Source: a virus. From it: a stretch of DNA of 29,344 nucleotides. The notes beneath the pieces were generated by a model, which had not been told where the DNA came from, ran no database searches, and worked only from the letters and a program-made list of their open reading frames with translations. The translations under genes and the position numbers were made by a program. The stretch lies in the IMG/VR virus record IMGVR_UViG_3300003323_001383; one strand, given 5' to 3'. The stretch's first letter is position 1. Every line of letters begins with the position of its first letter. Positions 2,526-13,748 of the stretch are shown one piece after another.

Positions 2526-2594
2526 GGGGACGTGTGACGGGTCACGGCCTTCCCCCGCAAGGAGGGCTCGCGGGTTCGACTCCCGACGTCTCCA
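2526..2594 (+). tRNA. atypical tRNA-Ala(CGC)-like element (possible pseudogene)
   Basis: Acceptor GGGGACG/CGTCTCC with G3:U70; anticodon stem CTTCC/GGAGG loop CCCGCAA (C at position 33); reduced D-arm GTGA-cggg-TCAC; G:A mismatch at base of T-stem; only 69 nt. Confidence 0.4.
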
Positions 2595-2603
2595 CTCACT
2601 TCT

Positions 2604-2684: not shown

Positions 2685-2757
2685 GCGAGACGAGGTAGCA
2701 GGTGACACCACCGCCTTGACAAGGCGGCCACGCCGGGTTCGATACCCGGGTCTCGCA
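2685..2757 (+). tRNA. tRNA-Val(GAC)
   Basis: Acceptor GCGAGAC/GTCTCGC, anticodon stem CCGCC/GGCGG loop TTGACAA, T-arm CCGGG-TTCGATA-CCCGG. Confidence 0.85.
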
Positions 2758-2758
2758 C

Positions 2759-2821
2759 GAGGTCGCGCCCAGCGAAGGGCGGTCACACAAGCAAATGGAG
2801 GTTCGAGTCCTCCCGTCCCCA
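2759..2821 (+). pseudogene. tRNA-like remnant lacking a D-arm
   Basis: Good T-arm GGAGG-TTCGAGT-CCTCC and 3' acceptor CGTCCCC-A. The 5' strand GAGGTCG pairs only 5/7 and a single hairpin CGCCC-agcgaa-GGGCG replaces the D and anticodon arms. Confidence 0.3.
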
Positions 2822-2895
2822 CGAGCCCGCGAGGGCCACCCACGGGGATGTAGCCGAAATGGAATAGGCAACGATATTGAAAATCGTCAACATAT

Positions 2896-2913
2896 CCCGA
2901 TCCCCACATCGGG
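2896..2913 (-). terminator. stem-loop downstream of the sigma-factor gene
   Basis: CCCGAT-ccccac-ATCGGG, 15 nt past the stop at 2928; followed on the minus strand by an AT-rich tract (atatgttgacgattttc). Confidence 0.35.
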
Positions 2914-2927
2914 CGCGACCCAGCTCT

Positions 2928-3497
2928 TTAGAGGACGAAGTCCTCCGCCAGGGCCTCCCGCAGGCGCGAGATGGTCCGGGCGTGTATCTGCGAGATGCGG
3001 GGCTCGGACACGCCGAGCTCGGCCGCTATGGAGCGATAGTCCACGCCGTGGACGTGGTGGGAGACGAAGATGTGGCGCTCGCGCCACGGGAGGAGGTCGA
3101 CGAGTTCCCAGACCTTCGACAGGGCGAGGGCCGCCGCGGTCCTTGCCTCGACGTCGTCGCCCGACATTGCGTCCTCGAGCGACCTGTGCCCGGAGTCGAC
3201 GAGGACGTGGACCGCCCTGTCCGGGTCGCCCTTGGCCCTCATGCGGTGGTGCCTCGGCATCCAGTCCTTCGTCCGCAGGTCGTCCTTTATGGCGCCGCGG
3301 ATCCTTATCCTCGCGTAGGCCCCGAAGTTCTCGCAGTCGGGGTGGAGGCGCGCCGCGTCCCAGAGGCCGGACATCGCGGCCGCGTGGAGGTCGTCGTACA
3401 TGATGTGCGCCGGAAGGCGCCGCTTGAACCCGAGCGCGATGCTGCGGGCGAGGTGTGCGTGGTCCTTCATGAGGATCGAGACGCGATACTCGTTCAC
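2928..3497 (-). CDS. sigma-70 family RNA polymerase sigma factor (FliA/group 3-4-like), 189 aa
   Basis: Region 2 motif YARIRIRGAIKDDLR and region 4.2 helix-turn-helix IAAELGVSEPRISQIHARTISRLRE; GTG start. Confidence 0.85.
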   Translation of the reverse strand: MNEYRVSILMKDHAHLARSIALGFKRRLPAHIMYDDLHAAAMSGLWDAARLHPDCENFGAYARIRIRGAIKDDLRTKDWMPRHHRMRAKGDPDRAVHVLVDSGHRSLEDAMSGDDVEARTAAALALSKVWELVDLLPWRERHIFVSHHVHGVDYRSIAAELGVSEPRISQIHARTISRLREALAEDFVL

Positions 3498-4705: not shown

Positions 4706-6730
4706 ATGAACAACGAGAGCATGGGGGCGGCCGAGACCATCGTCCAGTCCCTTCTGTCCCACGCGGACCACATGTACCACAACCGTCCCGGCGTCGTCGT
4801 CGCGGACGCCCGCTTCAAGGTCGGGGTCCGTTGGGAGTACGTGACGCACCGCGAGAAGTGCCGGACCCACGAGGACGACCCGGTGAGGCCGGAGAAGGAC
4901 GCCGAGGGCAAGAAGACCGGCCGCCTGCTCTGCTCCAAGTGCCAGTCTGACGTCCGGGGGAACGGCCACAGGATCGTCTACCGGAAGGTCAAGGTCGGCA
5001 AGAAGGAGGAGGAGCAGAAGGTGGGCTACCTCGGCCCCGACGGGAAGGACGTCCTCGGCCCGAACGGGCAGAAGGTCGCCGAGTACCGCGAGGCCGGCGT
5101 CTTCCCCGAGATCGCCGTCTGGATGTACGAGCAGGTCGCGAAGGTCTGGGAGCTCGACAACGAGTTCGCCGCCCGCTGGGCGTCGCACGCGTTCGGCGAG
5201 GACCACAAGGACCGGGCCGTGATCATGGCGGCCTTCATGCTCGTCCAGTCCCGCAAGGGGGACCCCGTCCGCGAGGACGGCAAGGTCCTGTTCCACGACG
5301 ACGACTTCCGGGACGTCGGCGAGGCCATGGTCCTGCACCTGAAGGACAAGAGGAAGAAGGACGAGCGCGAGATCTCCCCGCGCATGCTCCTGCGCATTCA
5401 CGAGGTCCTGTCGCTCGACGGGATCGCGGCGGTCAACCGGCGCCTCGGCTTCGGGGTCTCCGCCCGCAGGCCGCCCTTGGGCCGCTGGGCGAAGGCCGTC
5501 GAGAAGTGGCTCCTCTACCGGGAGGAGAACCCGAAGATGCTGGAGGGCCTGGTCAAGTCCGGGCAGAAGTCGACCGTCGTCGAGCTCTGCAAGCGCGTCG
5601 GGTACAAGCCCGCCTCGCCCAGGTTCTTCGAGATCCTCGGCGTCCGGCAGAAGCAGGCGCCGGACGGCAGGCGCACGGTCGCCATCGGCCTCGACATCAG
5701 GTCCGGCGGCTCGTGGGAGGGCATGAGCGAGGAGCAGATCTGCGAGGCGATCGTCAGGGACAAGGTCGGCTACAAGCGGGTGGCCGGCATGGTCCCCAGG
5801 TCCGTCGGCGTCACCCGCGCCGTCATGGCCGCGACGATCGAGGCCGGGGGCGTCTCCGACAAGGAGATGATCATCCTCATGCCGACCCTCGAGGAGCTCG
5901 GGCTCCTGGACGTCCCCTCCGTCAAGGAGAGGATCGAGCGCGCCGTCAAGGGCGCGGACGACATGCGCGCCGCGAACGTCGCGGCCCGGATGCGCTCCCA
6001 GGAGGCGAAGGAGAAGCTCCAGGAGGCCTCGGACAACGCCCTGAAGAAGGCGGTCGAGGAGGTCATGAAGGACATGCGCGCGTACATCCTAGTCGACAAG
6101 TCGGGCTCCATGGAGGGCGCGATCGAGGCGGCGAAGGGATGCGTGACGAAGTTCCTCCAGGGCTTTCCGCCCGAGCGGGTCCACGTGGCGTACTTCGACG
6201 CCGTCGGCCGCGAGGTCAGGATCCCGCACCCGTCCGCGGCCGGGGTCGCCAAGGCCTTCTCCGGCATCACGGCCGGAGGCGGGACCAACTACGGCCAGGG
6301 CGTCCTCGCCCTGAGGGACCACGTCCCGAAGGACGAGGAGGACGTCGTCATGATCTTCATCGGCGACGAGGGCCACGGGATCGGCCGGCTCATCAGGCTC
6401 GGCGAGGGCGACCACCCGTCGTTCGCCGCCGACGTCCAGAGGTCCGGCCTGCGGCCGATGGCGTTCGGGCTCATCCCGATCGTCTCGAAGAACCCGCAGT
6501 TCCCGCGCGGCAACTCCGTCCGGAAGACGGCCGCCGAGCTCGGGATCCCCTGCTTCGAGATCGGCGAGGAGACCTTCGCCGACCCCTACGCCATCCCGAG
6601 GACGATCAGGAACATCATCGCGGCGACCCCGGTCACCGCGAGGGCGACGGCCGCCCCGGTCCGGCGGCAGACCCTGGTCGAGGTCATCATGAAGACCGAG
6701 CTCCTCCGGAAGCCCGCTTGGGCAGCCTGA
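4706..6730 (+). CDS. von Willebrand factor A (vWA) domain protein with long helical N-terminal region, possibly TROVE/Ro60-like, 674 aa
   Basis: SD AAGGAG 8 nt upstream. MIDAS DxSxS in ILVDKSGSMEG, then ITAGGGTNYG and VVMIFIGDEGH (vWA). N-terminal GRWAKAVEKWL...KP and C-terminal FADPYAIPRTIRNI recall Ro60 by eye only. Confidence 0.8.
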   Translation: MNNESMGAAETIVQSLLSHADHMYHNRPGVVVADARFKVGVRWEYVTHREKCRTHEDDPVRPEKDAEGKKTGRLLCSKCQSDVRGNGHRIVYRKVKVGKKEEEQKVGYLGPDGKDVLGPNGQKVAEYREAGVFPEIAVWMYEQVAKVWELDNEFAARWASHAFGEDHKDRAVIMAAFMLVQSRKGDPVREDGKVLFHDDDFRDVGEAMVLHLKDKRKKDEREISPRMLLRIHEVLSLDGIAAVNRRLGFGVSARRPPLGRWAKAVEKWLLYREENPKMLEGLVKSGQKSTVVELCKRVGYKPASPRFFEILGVRQKQAPDGRRTVAIGLDIRSGGSWEGMSEEQICEAIVRDKVGYKRVAGMVPRSVGVTRAVMAATIEAGGVSDKEMIILMPTLEELGLLDVPSVKERIERAVKGADDMRAANVAARMRSQEAKEKLQEASDNALKKAVEEVMKDMRAYILVDKSGSMEGAIEAAKGCVTKFLQGFPPERVHVAYFDAVGREVRIPHPSAAGVAKAFSGITAGGGTNYGQGVLALRDHVPKDEEDVVMIFIGDEGHGIGRLIRLGEGDHPSFAADVQRSGLRPMAFGLIPIVSKNPQFPRGNSVRKTAAELGIPCFEIGEETFADPYAIPRTIRNIIAATPVTARATAAPVRRQTLVEVIMKTELLRKPAWAA

Positions 6731-6738
6731 GGCGCACG

Positions 6739-7095
6739 ATGTCGAGGAGGATGGGGCGGGAGCCCCTCCCCTCCCCGGTGTCGCACCGGTCCTACCTCGC
6801 CAGCCCGGCGTTCGGGCTGGCAAGGTCGGGCCGCAGCATCTTCTCGGTCCCGAAGAGGGGGCCGCTCTTCTACGCCGACTTCGAGGCGACGGAGCTCCGG
6901 ATGATGGCCTCCCTGGGCCTCTTCAGGTTCCCGTGCCCCGCCTGCGGAGACCCGCTCCTGGCGAGCGCCCGCTCCGGACGGAGGTCGATGGGGTACCCGC
7001 ACGACCTTGCCGGAAGCCAGGACGACATCCTCGTCCAGCACGCCCTGAAGAAGGGGGACCCCGAGCACGGCGTCCTCCTCGTCATGACGGCGTAG
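6739..7095 (+). CDS. hypothetical protein, 118 aa, C-terminus VLLVMTA
   Basis: GC3-biased frame starting at ATG 6739; contains FYADFEATELRMMA (resembles family-A polymerase motif A) and CPACG. Confidence 0.6.
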   Translation: MSRRMGREPLPSPVSHRSYLASPAFGLARSGRSIFSVPKRGPLFYADFEATELRMMASLGLFRFPCPACGDPLLASARSGRRSMGYPHDLAGSQDDILVQHALKKGDPEHGVLLVMTA

Positions 7096-7146: not shown

Positions 7147-7220
7147 CCGCCGGTAGCTCAGCGGTCACGAGCACGCGCCTTATAAGCGTGGGGTCGGTGG
7201 TTCAACTCCACCCCGGCGGA
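7147..7220 (+). tRNA. tRNA-Ile(UAU)
   Basis: Acceptor CCGCCGG/CCGGCGG, D-arm TAGCTCAGCGGTCACGAGC, anticodon stem CGCGC/GCGTG loop CTTATAA, T-arm GGTGG-TTCAACT-CCACC. Confidence 0.8.
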
Positions 7221-7264
7221 CGAAGCAGGCGGAGATGGCGCGCCCTCGGGCGTAACGTCGTCCC

Positions 7265-10893: not shown

Positions 10894-11466
10894 ATGAAGA
10901 AGGTCACGATCGTCGGCGCCGGGGCCCTGGGCTCTCACCTCGTCATGCTGCTTCGGAACCACGCCGACATGAAGGTCGTGGACTTCGACCGCATCGAGAC
11001 GAAGAACACGATGTCCCAGCTCCACGGCAAGAGCACGGTCGGGAAGAACAAGGCAAAGTCTCTCCAGCAGACGATGCTCTTCCTGTTCGGCACGAGGCTC
11101 GAGGCGGTCCCGCACCGGCTCGAGCCGTCGAACGTCAAGGAGCTCCTCGAGGGCTCGGACCTCGTGGTCGACTGCGTCGACGACGGGCCGACCCGGAGGG
11201 TCATCCAGGCGTTCTGCGTGGAGAGAGGGATTGCGTGCCTGCACGGGGCGCTCTCGGCCGCCGGGGCAGACTTCGGCCAGGCCCGGTGGACCGAGGAGTT
11301 CACAGCCCACGACCGGACGGAGGGCGCGCCGACCTGCGAGGACGGCGAGCATCTTCCGTACATCGCGAAGGCCTCGGCGCAGCTCGCCATCGCGGCGCAG
11401 GACTTCCTGCGCGACGGCTCCAAGCGCGGGTTCCTCGTGCAGCGGGGCCCGGTCAAGGAGATCTGA
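10894..11466 (+). CDS. ThiF/MoeB/HesA-type E1-like adenylyltransferase (short form), 190 aa
   Basis: N-terminal Rossmann loop VTIVGAGALGSHL, VVDFDRIETKN, DLVVDCVDDGPTRR, all typical of the E1/ThiF adenylation domain; Cys in APTCEDGE. Confidence 0.8.
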   Translation: MKKVTIVGAGALGSHLVMLLRNHADMKVVDFDRIETKNTMSQLHGKSTVGKNKAKSLQQTMLFLFGTRLEAVPHRLEPSNVKELLEGSDLVVDCVDDGPTRRVIQAFCVERGIACLHGALSAAGADFGQARWTEEFTAHDRTEGAPTCEDGEHLPYIAKASAQLAIAAQDFLRDGSKRGFLVQRGPVKEI

Positions 11467-11469
11467 GGA

Positions 11470-11499
11470 TTGACGGCGGTACGTCCGCCGGTGTAAAGT
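11470..11499 (+). promoter_or_regulatory. candidate sigma-70-type promoter ahead of the long tRNA-like RNA cluster
   Basis: TTGACG-N18-TAAAGT; the spacer holds the hairpin GGCGG-tacgt-CCGCC, which could instead terminate the E1 gene. Confidence 0.3.
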
Positions 11500-11552
11500 A
11501 ACGACGTCAGCAGCGAGACGCCAAGCGTCTCCGGGACCAGAAGGTCCCTCTC

Positions 11553-11682
11553 GGGGTTCAAGGAGACTGGGTCTCCACCAATCGGTAAAATTGGCAAATC
11601 ACCCAGAGTCGGCAATCGGGCCAGCGATGGCCCTCCCGAACGGCTCTCACAAGCAAGCTAGGTTCGATTCCTAGGGACCCCA
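11553..11682 (+). ncRNA. 130-nt tRNA-shaped RNA with 63-nt insertion at variable-loop position (copy 1, anticodon-loop CGGTAAA)
   Basis: Acceptor GGGGTTC/GGACCCC, D-arm GGAG-ACTGGGT-CTCC, anticodon arm CCAAT-CGGTAAA-ATTGG (GUA, but G33), T-arm CTAGG-TTCGATT-CCTAG. Insertion shares blocks with copies 2 and 3. Confidence 0.6.
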
Positions 11683-11717
11683 CACGCCGGGCCTTCCGGC
11701 GTAAGATCGCAGAGTTC

Positions 11718-11851
11718 GCCCCGTAAGAGGTCTGGGTACCTCATTTCCCTTCCACGGAAACACACAACACCCCAGGCTAGCCAATCGACCCCTCGCGGGG
11801 TCACCAGGCACAGTCTCACATGCATGGATGGTTCGATTCCATCACGGGGCT
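11718..11851 (+). ncRNA. 134-nt tRNA-shaped RNA with 66-nt insertion (copy 2, anticodon UCC)
   Basis: Acceptor GCCCCGT/ACGGGGC, D-arm GAGG-TCTGGGTA-CCTC, anticodon arm TTTCC-CTTCCAC-GGAAA, T-arm GATGG-TTCGATT-CCATC, then T-CCA. Confidence 0.6.
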
Positions 11852-11880
11852 CCAGAGGCGTTCAGCGCGGCAAAGCACAC

Positions 11881-11952
11881 ATGCAATTAGCTCAAAGGTA
11901 GAGCGTCGGCCTACTAAGCCGGATGTTGCGGCCTCGAAAACCGCATTGCAAT
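11881..11952 (+). tRNA. aberrant class-I tRNA, anticodon ACU, imperfect T-arm (undetermined identity or pseudogene)
   Basis: D-arm TAGCTCAAAGGTAGAGC, anticodon stem TCGGC/GCCGG loop CTACTAA, T-arm GCGGC-CTCGAAA-ACCGC (C:A at 53:61, C54), acceptor ATGCAAT/ATTGCAA (A:A at 1:72); AT-richer than its neighbours. Confidence 0.4.
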
Positions 11953-11991
11953 CCAACCTCCCGCTTTCCGAATCGAACGTCTCGTAGTCTT

Positions 11992-12119
11992 GCCCGAAGT
12001 CGGGGTCTGGGACCCCACCAGTTTTTGGAACTGACAAACCCAGCGTCGCGCATCGACCCCCGTGAGAGGGTCAGCAAAGCGGCTCTCACAAGCTTCCGGT
12101 TCGAATCCGGATTCGGGCG
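11992..12119 (+). ncRNA. 128-nt tRNA-shaped RNA with 60-nt insertion (copy 3, anticodon UUG)
   Basis: Acceptor GCCCGAA/TTCGGGC, D-arm GGGG-TCTGGGA-CCCC, anticodon arm CCAGT-TTTTGGA-ACTGA, T-arm TCCGG-TTCGAAT-CCGGA. Insertion ends in CGGCTCTCACAAGC, identical to copy 1. Confidence 0.6.
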
Positions 12120-12146
12120 CAAGGAAAGGCAGAGGTAACGTGAAGG

Positions 12147-12506
12147 ATGAACTCCTCCGTTGATCTGCCTCCGCAAGGCATCCTTCGGCTTCTCGAGGAC
12201 GCGAGGAAGGTGTCCGTGTGGCTCACCGACTGTCACTTCGAGCGAAGGCTCGGGGATCCCTCGGACGTCTCCTTGTTCGACCTCAGCTTCCTGAGAGGCG
12301 ACTTCGCCGAGAGGAACGGGGTCCGGGAGCTCCGCATCGAGGGAGTGACGGTGTGCCATCCGGTGACGAGGCAGGAGCTCGAGCCGTTCTTCGACGGCAG
12401 GGAGGTCGTGAACCTCGTCGGGTGCCGGCACTGCGGCCGTCCTTGCGACCCGGAGCACGGGATCTGCCCGGACTGGGCCGCCGCGGCGTGTGTTCTGTCC
12501 TCGTAG
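12147..12506 (+). CDS. hypothetical protein, 119 aa
   Basis: SD GAAGG before ATG; GC3-biased; last 3 codons and the TAG stop lie inside tRNA-Arg(CCU). Confidence 0.65.
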   Translation: MNSSVDLPPQGILRLLEDARKVSVWLTDCHFERRLGDPSDVSLFDLSFLRGDFAERNGVRELRIEGVTVCHPVTRQELEPFFDGREVVNLVGCRHCGRPCDPEHGICPDWAAAACVLSS

Positions 12507-13677: not shown

Positions 13678-13748
13678 GCGGGACTGGTATAGAGGCTGTG
13701 CCTCGGCTTTCCAAGCCGAAGAGACCGGTTCGAGTCCGGTGTCCCGCT
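13678..13748 (+). tRNA. tRNA-Gly(UCC)
   Basis: Acceptor GCGGGAC/GTCCCGC, anticodon stem TCGGC/GCCGA loop TTTCCAA, T-arm ACCGG-TTCGAGT-CCGGT. Confidence 0.85.

Follow-up and report, generated by a model that had tools for sequence, protein, structure and literature searches.

The stretch of DNA analysed here (IMG/VR virus record IMGVR_UViG_3300003323_001383; 29,344 nucleotides (nt), referred to below as the window) carries at positions 11553-12119 three paralogous genes shaped like transfer RNAs (tRNAs), into which a structured RNA module is inserted at the variable-loop position. The element is real, conserved and undescribed. The three copies can be identified with high confidence as tRNA-derived genes that comprise a full acceptor stem, a T arm, an isoacceptor-type anticodon loop and the module, placed between nucleotides 43 and 44. 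The module is a portable, independently folding unit, a property missed in an earlier note on this DNA that was made from the sequence alone, and the window holds at least five RNAs of this system. The function that we favour, tentatively, is that of a protein-binding handle retained in the mature RNA, which would make these molecules Y-RNA-like tRNA chimeras; the most likely candidate partner is the protein encoded at 4706-6730, which has a predicted Ro60-like fold. The window has a G+C content of 66.7% and contains 34 tRNAs according to ARAGORN and 27 according to Rfam. As it is rich in tRNAs and its relatives are IMG/VR contigs of 140-620 kilobases (kb), it is a piece of a huge-phage tRNA island.

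The coordinates and anatomy that the earlier note had assigned to the three copies were confirmed, and their parts are as follows.

11553-11682 (+): copy 1, Tyr-like unit; acceptor stem 11553-11559 / 11675-11681, D arm 11562-11576
11578-11594 (+): copy 1 anticodon arm, loop CGGUAAA (G33, anticodon GUA); linker 11595-11604
11605-11611 / 11641-11647 (+): copy 1 module helix P1, with the P2 hairpin at 11618-11633 and the motif CACAAGC at 11648-11654
11658-11674 (+): copy 1 T arm; discriminator A at 11682
11718-11851 (+): copy 2, Gly-like unit; anticodon loop CUUCCAC (UCC) 11749-11755, linker 11761-11773
11774-11778 / 11812-11816 (+): copy 2 module helix P1, with the P2 hairpin at 11787-11802 and the motif CACATGC at 11817-11823
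11827-11843 (+): copy 2 T arm; discriminator U at 11851, followed by CCA
11992-12119 (+): copy 3, Gln-like unit; anticodon loop UUUUGGA (UUG) 12023-12029, linker 12035-12041
12042-12049 / 12079-12086 (+): copy 3 module helix P1, with the P2 hairpin at 12055-12072 and the motif CACAAGC at 12087-12093
12095-12111 (+): copy 3 T arm; discriminator G at 12119

Each copy has an acceptor stem of 7 base pairs (bp), the T arm GGTTCGA(T/A)TCC and a 5-bp anticodon stem closed by a 7-nt loop (in copy 3 the first pair of this stem is a C.A mismatch), and the anticodon arm and the T arm are separated by 63, 66 and 60 nt in copies 1, 2 and 3, respectively. Single-sequence folds give this layout, with stabilities relative to dinucleotide shuffles of z = -3.2, -3.1 and -2.2. 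The D arm stands as proposed earlier, except that its stem is better drawn with 5-6 bp and a 3-6-nt loop than with 4 bp, the inner pairs being supported by covariation. The promoter-like site TTGACG-N18-TAAAGT noticed upstream of the cluster (11470-11499, + strand), which is of the sigma-70 type, is the sole match in 11300-12300, where shuffles lead one to expect 0.0, and a counterpart, TTGAC(C/G)-N17/18-TA(A/G)AGT, occupies the same place in the syntenic contigs L057 (the closest relative of the window) and L059. The copies had also been described as separated by hairpins. This is correct for copies 1 and 2, which are only 35 nt apart, and incorrect for copies 2 and 3, where a fourth RNA is found. 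The hairpin, supported by the sequence and a three-way alignment, is

11685-11701 (+): GC hairpin CGCCGG-GCCTT-CCGGCG between copies 1 and 2

and in L057 and L059 its place is taken by a split module around a non-tRNA payload of about 45 nt.

The general anatomy of the module was derived from 34 distinct closed units, collected by a motif scan of IMG/VR and from syntenic contigs retrieved via a neighbouring protein; counts out of 34 below refer to this set. All 34 insertions have the same order of elements, namely a linker, CC, helix P1, an internal loop ending in UC before the G of the capped helix P2, the returning strand P1' and the motif CACA(A/C/U)GC. The 5' linker is A/C-rich and single-stranded, has 4-19 nt and ends in CC; P1 comprises 3-9 bp, usually beginning with A-U followed by G-C; the internal loop is roughly symmetric (4-8 by 4-9 nt), with a 5' strand that ends in UC and a 3' strand that usually begins with A. 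The first pair of P2 is G-C, and its cap may be any stable tetraloop (GCAA, GAAA, UUCG and others), so that this helix can be opened without loss. The module as a whole spans 45-55 nt, of which about 18 are conserved, mostly at the flanks and at the junctions of loops and helices. The 5' linker is variable in length and the 3' junction is fixed: the motif is followed by the T stem after 0-7 nt, and the distance counted from the GC of the motif is exactly 5 nt in 19 of 34 units.

For helix statistics, the 34 units were aligned by segments, pairs were counted, and the counts were compared with those of 500 shuffles and of slid controls. Standard pairs occupy 97.2% of the cells versus 59.9% in the shuffles, none of which reaches the observed value, and 35-54% in the slid controls; the helix boundaries were set by pairing, which inflates the percentage paired and leaves the diversity of pair types unaffected. 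The covariation score is 0.805, compared with 0.187 in the shuffles. All six helices covary, with double changes at 7/7 pairs of the acceptor stem, 6/6 of the D stem, 5/5 of the anticodon stem, 9/9 of P1, 6/8 of P2 and 3/5 of the T stem. Compensatory changes in the insertion, whose absence the earlier note would have counted against the element, are thus abundant among the homologues, and the paralogy of the copies and the structured, conserved nature of their insertions are borne out by the homologues and the folds. A covariance model of the closed module (R1), built from the module alignment, was run on the window and on 72 loci centred on the Ro60-like gene discussed below. Its matches in the window are exactly the three copies (30.8 bits, E = 5e-6; 21.7 bits, E = 8.5e-4; 35.1 bits, E = 4.4e-7, in the order of the copies). 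A detector combining a regular expression with helix rules had been tried on the Ro60-like loci and was dropped in favour of the covariance model, since it produced false matches in coding DNA and missed the units of locus L002. One proposed feature did not survive the comparison, namely the pairing of CCCAG in the insertion with CUGGG in the D loop. The complementarity exists in only 7 of 34 units, all of the window lineage, and does not covary, and the L059 orthologue of copy 3 has lost CUGGG and kept CCCAG. Within CCCAG, CC belongs to the conserved flank and AG to the first two pairs of P1.

The module also occurs in a split form. Here the break is at the P2 loop, and a payload, which always starts with the GC of the motif, is preceded by the 3' half of the module and followed by its 5' half. 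Three circular permutations are seen across dozens of huge phages: the module may be closed and lie inside a tRNA, it may be open and surround a permuted tRNA, or its open halves may form the leader and trailer that enclose either a tRNA or a small hairpin RNA. In permuted payloads, the order is T arm, acceptor 3' strand, a loop of 5-23 nt that often begins with N-CCA, acceptor 5' strand, D arm and anticodon arm. Payload tRNAs of ordinary order have nucleotide +1 at 0 or -1 nt from the G of the motif and always directly follow a closed unit, a combination seen at at least 10 phage loci. Both open forms are represented in the window.

2761-2920 (+): permuted unit; 10-bp closing helix 2761-2770 / 2911-2920, motif CACAAGC 2786-2792
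2797-2813 (+): T arm of the permuted unit, followed by the acceptor 3' strand 2814-2820, a 23-nt loop and the acceptor 5' strand 2844-2850
2853-2869 (+): canonical D arm of the permuted unit, followed by the anticodon arm 2871-2887 with the loop AUUGAAA (UGA)
11855-11983 (+): leader/trailer unit, the fourth member of the cluster, a split module around a tRNA of ordinary length at 11881-11952
11855-11884 (+): leader of this unit, comprising a' 11855-11863, J' 11864-11871, P1' 11872-11876 and the motif ACACATGC 11877-11884
11953-11983 (+): trailer of this unit, comprising the linker 11953-11962, P1 11963-11967, J 11968-11974 and a 11975-11983

The minimum-free-energy fold of the permuted unit gives this layout, and its closing helix covaries with that of the L057 orthologue (GGUCGCGCCC/GGGCGCGACC in the window, GGCCGCGCCC/GGGCGCGGCC in L057); both orthologues have a serine anticodon, UGA in the window and AGA in L057. 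The leader/trailer unit begins 4 nt past copy 2 and ends 8 nt short of copy 3. Its tRNA scores 50.4 bits against the Rfam tRNA model and receives no ARAGORN call; the T loop, CUCGAAA, is unusual, and the first acceptor pair is A.A. The anticodon is not the same in all orthologues: ACU in the window, AAU in L057 and CAU in L059. Non-tRNA payloads are 35-55 nt long, some with a hairpin resembling an anticodon loop. One of these, GCUUUUGGC(U/A)AA-hairpin-CCCC of about 45 nt, is common to L057, L059 and L080 and absent from the window; sequence comparison places the split modules around it as follows.

L057, 17385-17490: split module around the GCUUUUGGC payload
L059, 17560-17665: split module around the same payload
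L080, motif at 3365 (-): split module around the same payload

Three further small payloads were seen in L011, one of them with a tRNA-Met-like anticodon stem-loop, UUCC-CUCAUAA-GGAA.

The view of the earlier note that no described RNA family fits the three copies was upheld. Rfam was scanned over the whole window at gathering thresholds and over 11400-12250 and 2700-3000 at E<=10; the copies have no match in 11400-12250 at the permissive threshold or in the whole window at the gathering thresholds, and in particular they receive neither an ARAGORN call nor an RF00005 match even at E<=10. As candidates for a canonical tRNA (RF00005/ARAGORN), they have stems, a T loop and an anticodon arm that fit and that covary across the 34 units, but the threshold is not reached. 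Their variable region is 60-66 nt, compared with 4-21 nt, and the core nucleotides (U8, A14, R15-Y48, a 4-bp D stem with a 7-11-nt loop) do not agree: position 8 is A, A and G in copies 1-3, and A 14, U 9, C 7 and G 2 times across the 34 units. A selenocysteine tRNA (tRNA-Sec) is rejected because the acceptor and T stems have 7+5 bp, not 8+5 or 9+4, and the anticodons are GUA, UCC and UUG, not UCA; a group I intron because the insertion has 60-66 nt instead of more than 200, follows the anticodon arm instead of interrupting the anticodon loop, and matches no Rfam intron. An intron of the bulge-helix-bulge (BHB) type, with two 3-nt bulges 4 bp apart, does not fit either, as the junctions are single-stranded and flank a self-contained P1. 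For the permuted unit, only sub-threshold Rfam matches were found. The two models of permuted transfer-messenger RNA (tmRNA) match 2797-2852 weakly (cyano_tmRNA, 18.3 bits with a cut-off of 70; tmRNA_permuted, 16.4 bits with a cut-off of 47), and a D arm and an anticodon arm follow where the tag reading frame would be expected; YrlA (RF02553) matches 2796-2869 with 15.4 bits, compared with a cut-off of 69. Copies 1-3 also depart from the YrlA order, having open acceptor ends and not a closed acceptor. The Ro60-binding motif GNCGAAN0-1G is not conserved among the 34 closed and about 30 split modules inspected, in which CGAA is sporadic.

A blastn search of 11400-12250 against GenBank phages yielded no match. 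When the genomes of 185,579 bacterial and archaeal species were scanned with the motif, the matches were chance ones to ordinary 82-85-nt class II tRNAs, and module-bearing units were restricted to L080 and L167, two short contigs that look as if phage DNA had been assigned to the wrong bin; the Ro60-like gene, too, is present on L080. By these searches, the family is limited to uncultivated huge phages. In the literature on phage permuted and split tRNAs and on variable-loop introns, no description of this element was found.

With respect to decoding, the observation of the earlier note that ordinary tRNA-Gly (UCC) and tRNA-Gln (UUG) genes exist in the window, at 13678 and 19018, is correct, and L057 encodes ordinary tRNAs for all three anticodons, including a tRNA-Tyr (GUA) with the normal loop CUGUAAA. 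Because ordinary tRNAs with the same anticodons are present in the lineage, the three copies are redundant for decoding. Their anticodon loops are nevertheless kept by isoacceptor in distant phages: CGGUAAA recurs in five phages, and CUUCCA(C/A) and (U/A)UUUGGA in several each. The discriminators are U73 in 5/5 UCC units, A73 in 4/5 GUA units and G73 in the UUG units of the window lineage, and CCA is encoded in about one third of the units. Features that argue against routine decoding are the lack of conservation of U8 and the D arm with its 5-6-bp stem and short loop. In the Tyr-like unit, G33 replaces the near-universal U33 in five phages. More generally, G33 precedes GUA, GUU and GAU, and A34 occurs in AUC, AAG, AAU and AGA (loci L016, L019, L040, L045, L080, L005, L010 and others). 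Colicin-E5-type nucleases and the queuosine-inserting tRNA-guanine transglycosylase read the positions U33-G34-U35, and the G33/A34 pattern may reflect evasion of a host enzyme. A separate case is L167, where a unit on the minus strand at 5445 has the anticodon loop UUUCAGU (UCA) and is called tRNA-SeC by ARAGORN after removal of the module in silico, and so could be an opal-reading tRNA.

The protein proposed as the partner of the module RNAs is encoded upstream of the cluster.

4706-6730 (+): 674-amino-acid protein with a C-terminal VWA domain and a predicted Ro60-like fold (Pfam, AlphaFold2, Foldseek)

Pfam recognizes only VWA_2 in this protein and no TROVE domain. It has about 1,700 homologues, almost all of them unannotated and many on contigs of 200-620 kb. 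An AlphaFold2 model computed with 34 homologues has a predicted local distance difference test score (pLDDT) of 80, and the top eight matches of this model in a Foldseek search of the PDB are all Ro60/TROVE structures, with plain VWA domains ranking next. The best match is the Ro60 of the Thermus phage phiLo (9kop, E = 4e-9); Xenopus Ro60 (1yvp, E = 4e-7) and 9l5y are also among the matches. These alignments cover 550-600 columns but have template modelling (TM) scores of only 0.2-0.34, and the N-terminal beta-rich domain (residues ~29-128) is not present in Ro60. The protein is called Ro60-like here by its modelled fold. Two neighbours of its gene are conserved: upstream, on the opposite strand, a sigma-70-like gene, and downstream, an HU-like gene.

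The gene and the RNAs are recurrently linked. Among approximately 25 module contigs found by the RNA motif alone, 19 carry the Ro60-like gene on the same strand less than 10 kb from the module RNAs; the RNA cluster usually lies 3-6 kb downstream of the gene, and in the window the gene is located 4.8 kb upstream of the cluster, on the same strand. On 13 contigs of 340-619 kb, every motif match falls within that single locus, and in the 72 gene-centred loci all 24 covariance-model matches (E<=0.01) are on the strand of the gene. The earlier idea that the RNAs are ligands of a Ro60-like protein gains real support from the predicted fold and the recurrent linkage, with binding itself as a candidate property.

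The reading that we prefer combines these observations. The cluster would be transcribed from the promoter at 11470 and cut into units by ordinary tRNA end-processing, and the module would stay in the mature RNA as a protein-binding handle, the counterpart of the conserved stem of Y RNAs, with the divergent Ro60-like protein from 4706-6730 as its likeliest partner. Such a chimera would present its tRNA body, in some cases with altered loop positions (G33), to tRNA-binding factors (candidates are synthetases, modification enzymes, anticodon nucleases and repair enzymes) while recruiting the ring protein, and could act as a phage analogue of the bacterial Rsr-YrlA particle in tRNA surveillance, repair or counter-defence and not in routine decoding. 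Bacterial and phage Ro60 proteins bind Y RNAs encoded nearby that consist of a terminal stem and a tRNA-like domain (PMC4201824, PMC12135203, PMC7824862). Retention is preferred because the variable linker suits a tethered domain better than a measured excision, because the module carries non-tRNA payloads too, because the copies are redundant for decoding, and because a protein of the Ro60 type, the only one known to be associated with RNAs made of a stem and a tRNA-like domain, is conserved next to them. The ends of the split units lie close to flanking tRNA processing sites, so that a released RNA would have paired, Y-RNA-like termini, which also supports a handle. Several facts weigh against this reading. 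The tRNA bodies look chargeable (U73, A73, encoded CCA), which would suit decoding tRNAs from which the insertion is removed, and deletion of the linker and module in silico turns 23 of 34 units into tRNAs callable by ARAGORN, compared with 0 of 34 intact ones, with a 5-nt variable loop in 19 of 34. The protein, a proposed partner, resembles Ro60 solely by a low-TM fold match with no TROVE sequence signal; the RNAs lack GNCGAAN0-1G and are not recognized by the YrlA model of Rfam. In addition, about 8 genes separate the protein gene from the cluster, and both reside in a large tRNA island of related phages; therefore, inherited synteny contributes to the linkage and could account for it.

In the main competing explanation, a rather unlikely one, the module is a processing cassette that resembles an intron. 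The cuts would fall after CACAA at the 3' end and, at the 5' end, near the CC or where the anticodon stem stops. Closed units would be spliced or left as nicked two-piece tRNAs, in permuted units ligation would take place at the variable loop and opening at the acceptor loop, and leader/trailer units would be matured at their ends; the enzymes could be RNase P, RNase III or a phage nuclease, together with an RNA ligase, in analogy to the archaeal and algal BHB system. The occurrence of one element inside tRNAs, around permuted tRNAs and as leader/trailer is the known signature of a splicing signal, the motif abuts acceptor nucleotide +1 in leader/trailer tRNAs and all payloads start with GC, N-CCA often lies inside the acceptor-closing loop of permuted units, the in-silico deletion described above restores callable tRNAs, identity-type discriminators are kept, and "enigmatic introns" have been described in the huge-phage tRNAs Phe-GAA, Gly-UCC, Thr-UGU and Tyr-GUA (bioRxiv 10.1101/356790). 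However, there is no bulge-helix-bulge, both junctions being single-stranded and outside a self-contained helix; because the 5' linker ranges from 4 to 19 nt, the cut that yields a canonical product could not be placed by its distance from the module; neither the window nor the corresponding regions of L057 and L059 contain a recognizable endonuclease or RNA ligase; for each copy, the lineage has an ordinary tRNA with the same anticodon; and non-tRNA payloads need no splicing. No module-less allele was found by BLAST over all loci, a search of little power; a metagenome pattern scan also found none, but its control scan recovered only the contig of L057 itself, and this negative carries no weight. 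The suggestion of the earlier note that the copies are intron-bearing precursors remains a live rival to the retained handle. There is a substantial chance, though one well below even, that huge phages possess their own system of tRNA-gene disruption and processing, in which a portable cassette serves as both a new tRNA intron and the joining signal for permuted tRNA genes; the Ro60-like ring protein may be part of such machinery. We regard as doubtful a different proposal, namely that the units function as tRNAs in which the module is retained as an oversized extra arm with no dedicated Ro60-like partner. The arm and the altered loop positions (G33, A34) would then make them resistant spares, or decoys, against anticodon nucleases of the host or other toxins that attack tRNAs. 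This proposal would account for the isoacceptor-specific conservation of anticodon loops across distant phages, for G33 before GUA, GUU and GAU and A34 in AUC, for the identity-type discriminators and encoded CCA, and for the redundancy with canonical copies. It leaves unexplained the conserved flanks and internal loop of the module and its presence around non-tRNA hairpins and whole tRNAs; G33 should weaken decoding, and we know of no precedent for a tethered domain of more than 50 nt in ribosome-competent tRNAs. That the module is a new small self-cleaving ribozyme, cutting at one or both conserved flanks, is a highly improbable and purely speculative idea: the compact size, the conserved nucleotides at junctions and flanks and the constant position at RNA boundaries would suit it, yet no known class matches at E<=10 and nothing resembles a known catalytic core. 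A primer role, also listed earlier, found no evidence. There is next to no chance that the copies are tRNA pseudogenes in decay that a repeat or miniature mobile element has invaded, or that they are artefacts of assembly or of a coding region. They are in tandem and uncalled by ordinary tRNA finders, as such an origin would predict; but their helix sequences differ while the pairing is kept, they lack the near-identity within one genome that is expected of a mobile repeat, the orthologous clusters of the independent assemblies L057, L059 and L060 have kept the anticodon loops and T arms, and no open reading frame with coding-type G+C at third codon positions spans the region. The artefact readings are excluded by the covariation, the independent orthologues and the lack of a coding-type frame. 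Of the two readings that fit most of the facts, a Y-RNA-like function and a disrupted tRNA gene, the former, with a retained handle, is preferred.

Among known systems, the closest in architecture are the YrlA/Y RNAs (RF02553; Chen et al. 2014, PMC4201824). Like the RNAs described here, they are non-coding, combine a tRNA-like domain with a conserved stem-internal loop-stem, and occur as several paralogues per genome, also in phages; YrlA RNAs are encoded near, and on the same strand as, a Ro60-type gene, and the present RNAs in this way near a gene whose product has a predicted Ro60-like fold; the permuted unit at 2761-2920 even has the YrlA order of T arm, closed acceptor and D arm. In the three copies, unlike in YrlA, the acceptor ends are free, the anticodon arm is complete and has loops of isoacceptor type, and the stem is attached at the variable-loop position and not at the anticodon stem; GNCGAA is absent, and the protein is Ro60-like by fold only, with an extra N-terminal beta domain. 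The YrlA of Mycobacterium smegmatis is cut by RNase P and receives CCA (PMC4201824); by analogy, the CCA-containing acceptor loops found here suggest a similar fate. The BHB intron, split and permuted tRNA genes of archaea and red and green algae, processed by EndA and RtcB, share with the present system the use of one element inside tRNAs, at permuted ends and as leader/trailer, as well as the permuted order of 3' half, acceptor loop (sometimes with CCA) and 5' half. In contrast to them, the module is encoded by a bacterial virus, lacks a BHB, has its helix wholly internal to the insertion and has single-stranded candidate cut sites; the insertion is at 43/44, no EndA- or RtcB-type genes were recognized in the window or its neighbours, and excision is a candidate process. 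The "enigmatic introns" of Lak megaphages (Devoto et al., bioRxiv 10.1101/356790) resemble the present units, as far as a comparison by description goes, in being oversized huge-phage tRNA genes (Gly-UCC, Tyr-GUA, Phe-GAA) with an unexplained mechanism; they differ in that they were obtained with eukaryotic tRNAscan settings, come from low-GC Prevotella phages, and were reported with no structure, motif or permutation. Finally, tRNA-Sec and class II tRNAs also have extra structure at the variable position, and many units, including the three copies, share with tRNA-Sec a 5-6-bp D stem, a 3-6-nt loop and the lack of U8. Here, however, the stems are 7 + 5 bp, the anticodons are not UCA and the arm has 45-55 nt, not 10-25. 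Moreover, a class II arm stacks directly, whereas the module is tethered by 7-13 and 8-10 unpaired nt in the three copies and by 4-19 and 7-14 across the 34 units.

Taken together, the RNA module is widespread, is supported by covariation, and escapes both Rfam and current tRNA finders; tRNA genes of huge phages are arranged around it in closed, permuted and leader/trailer form. The module is also a concrete candidate RNA ligand for the unannotated Ro60-like family. Its retention would make these the first Y-RNA-like particles to have a complete, possibly chargeable tRNA as their body, with a bearing on how phages protect, repair or disguise tRNAs against host anticodon nucleases. If it is excised, it would constitute a new class of tRNA intron together with permuted tRNA genes outside archaea and eukaryotes, and could explain the "enigmatic introns" of megaphage tRNAs; were it a true processing system, it would provide the first examples, among bacteria and phages, of permuted tRNA genes and of tRNA splicing that depends on a protein or on RNase P. 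Either way, tRNA counts of huge phages and inferences on codon reassignment are currently incomplete.

Searches of 30 window proteins against Pfam, PHROGs, NCBIfam and PDB sequences yielded no RNA ligase or RNA nuclease gene; they identified a sigma-70 factor, a response regulator, an HNH nuclease, a NUDIX protein, Hsp20, a ThiF-like protein and a phosphatase. The ThiF/MoeB-type adenylyltransferase domain protein has 190 amino acids and is located directly 5' of the RNA cluster, a placement kept in L057 and L059. Two ARAGORN calls are probably false or degenerate, having no Rfam support: a tRNA-Ala (CGC), and a tRNA-Gly (UCC) recorded as partly within the 4706-6730 coding sequence. A tRNA-Ile with the anticodon UAU lies just 3' of the Ro60-like gene in the window and in both L057 and L059.

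2526-2595 (+): ARAGORN tRNA-Ala (CGC), probably false or degenerate
6959-7044 (-): ARAGORN tRNA-Gly (UCC), probably false or degenerate
7147-7221 (+): tRNA-Ile (UAU), with counterparts at 12908-12983 in L057 and 12569-12644 in L059
10894-11466 (+): ThiF/MoeB-type adenylyltransferase domain protein

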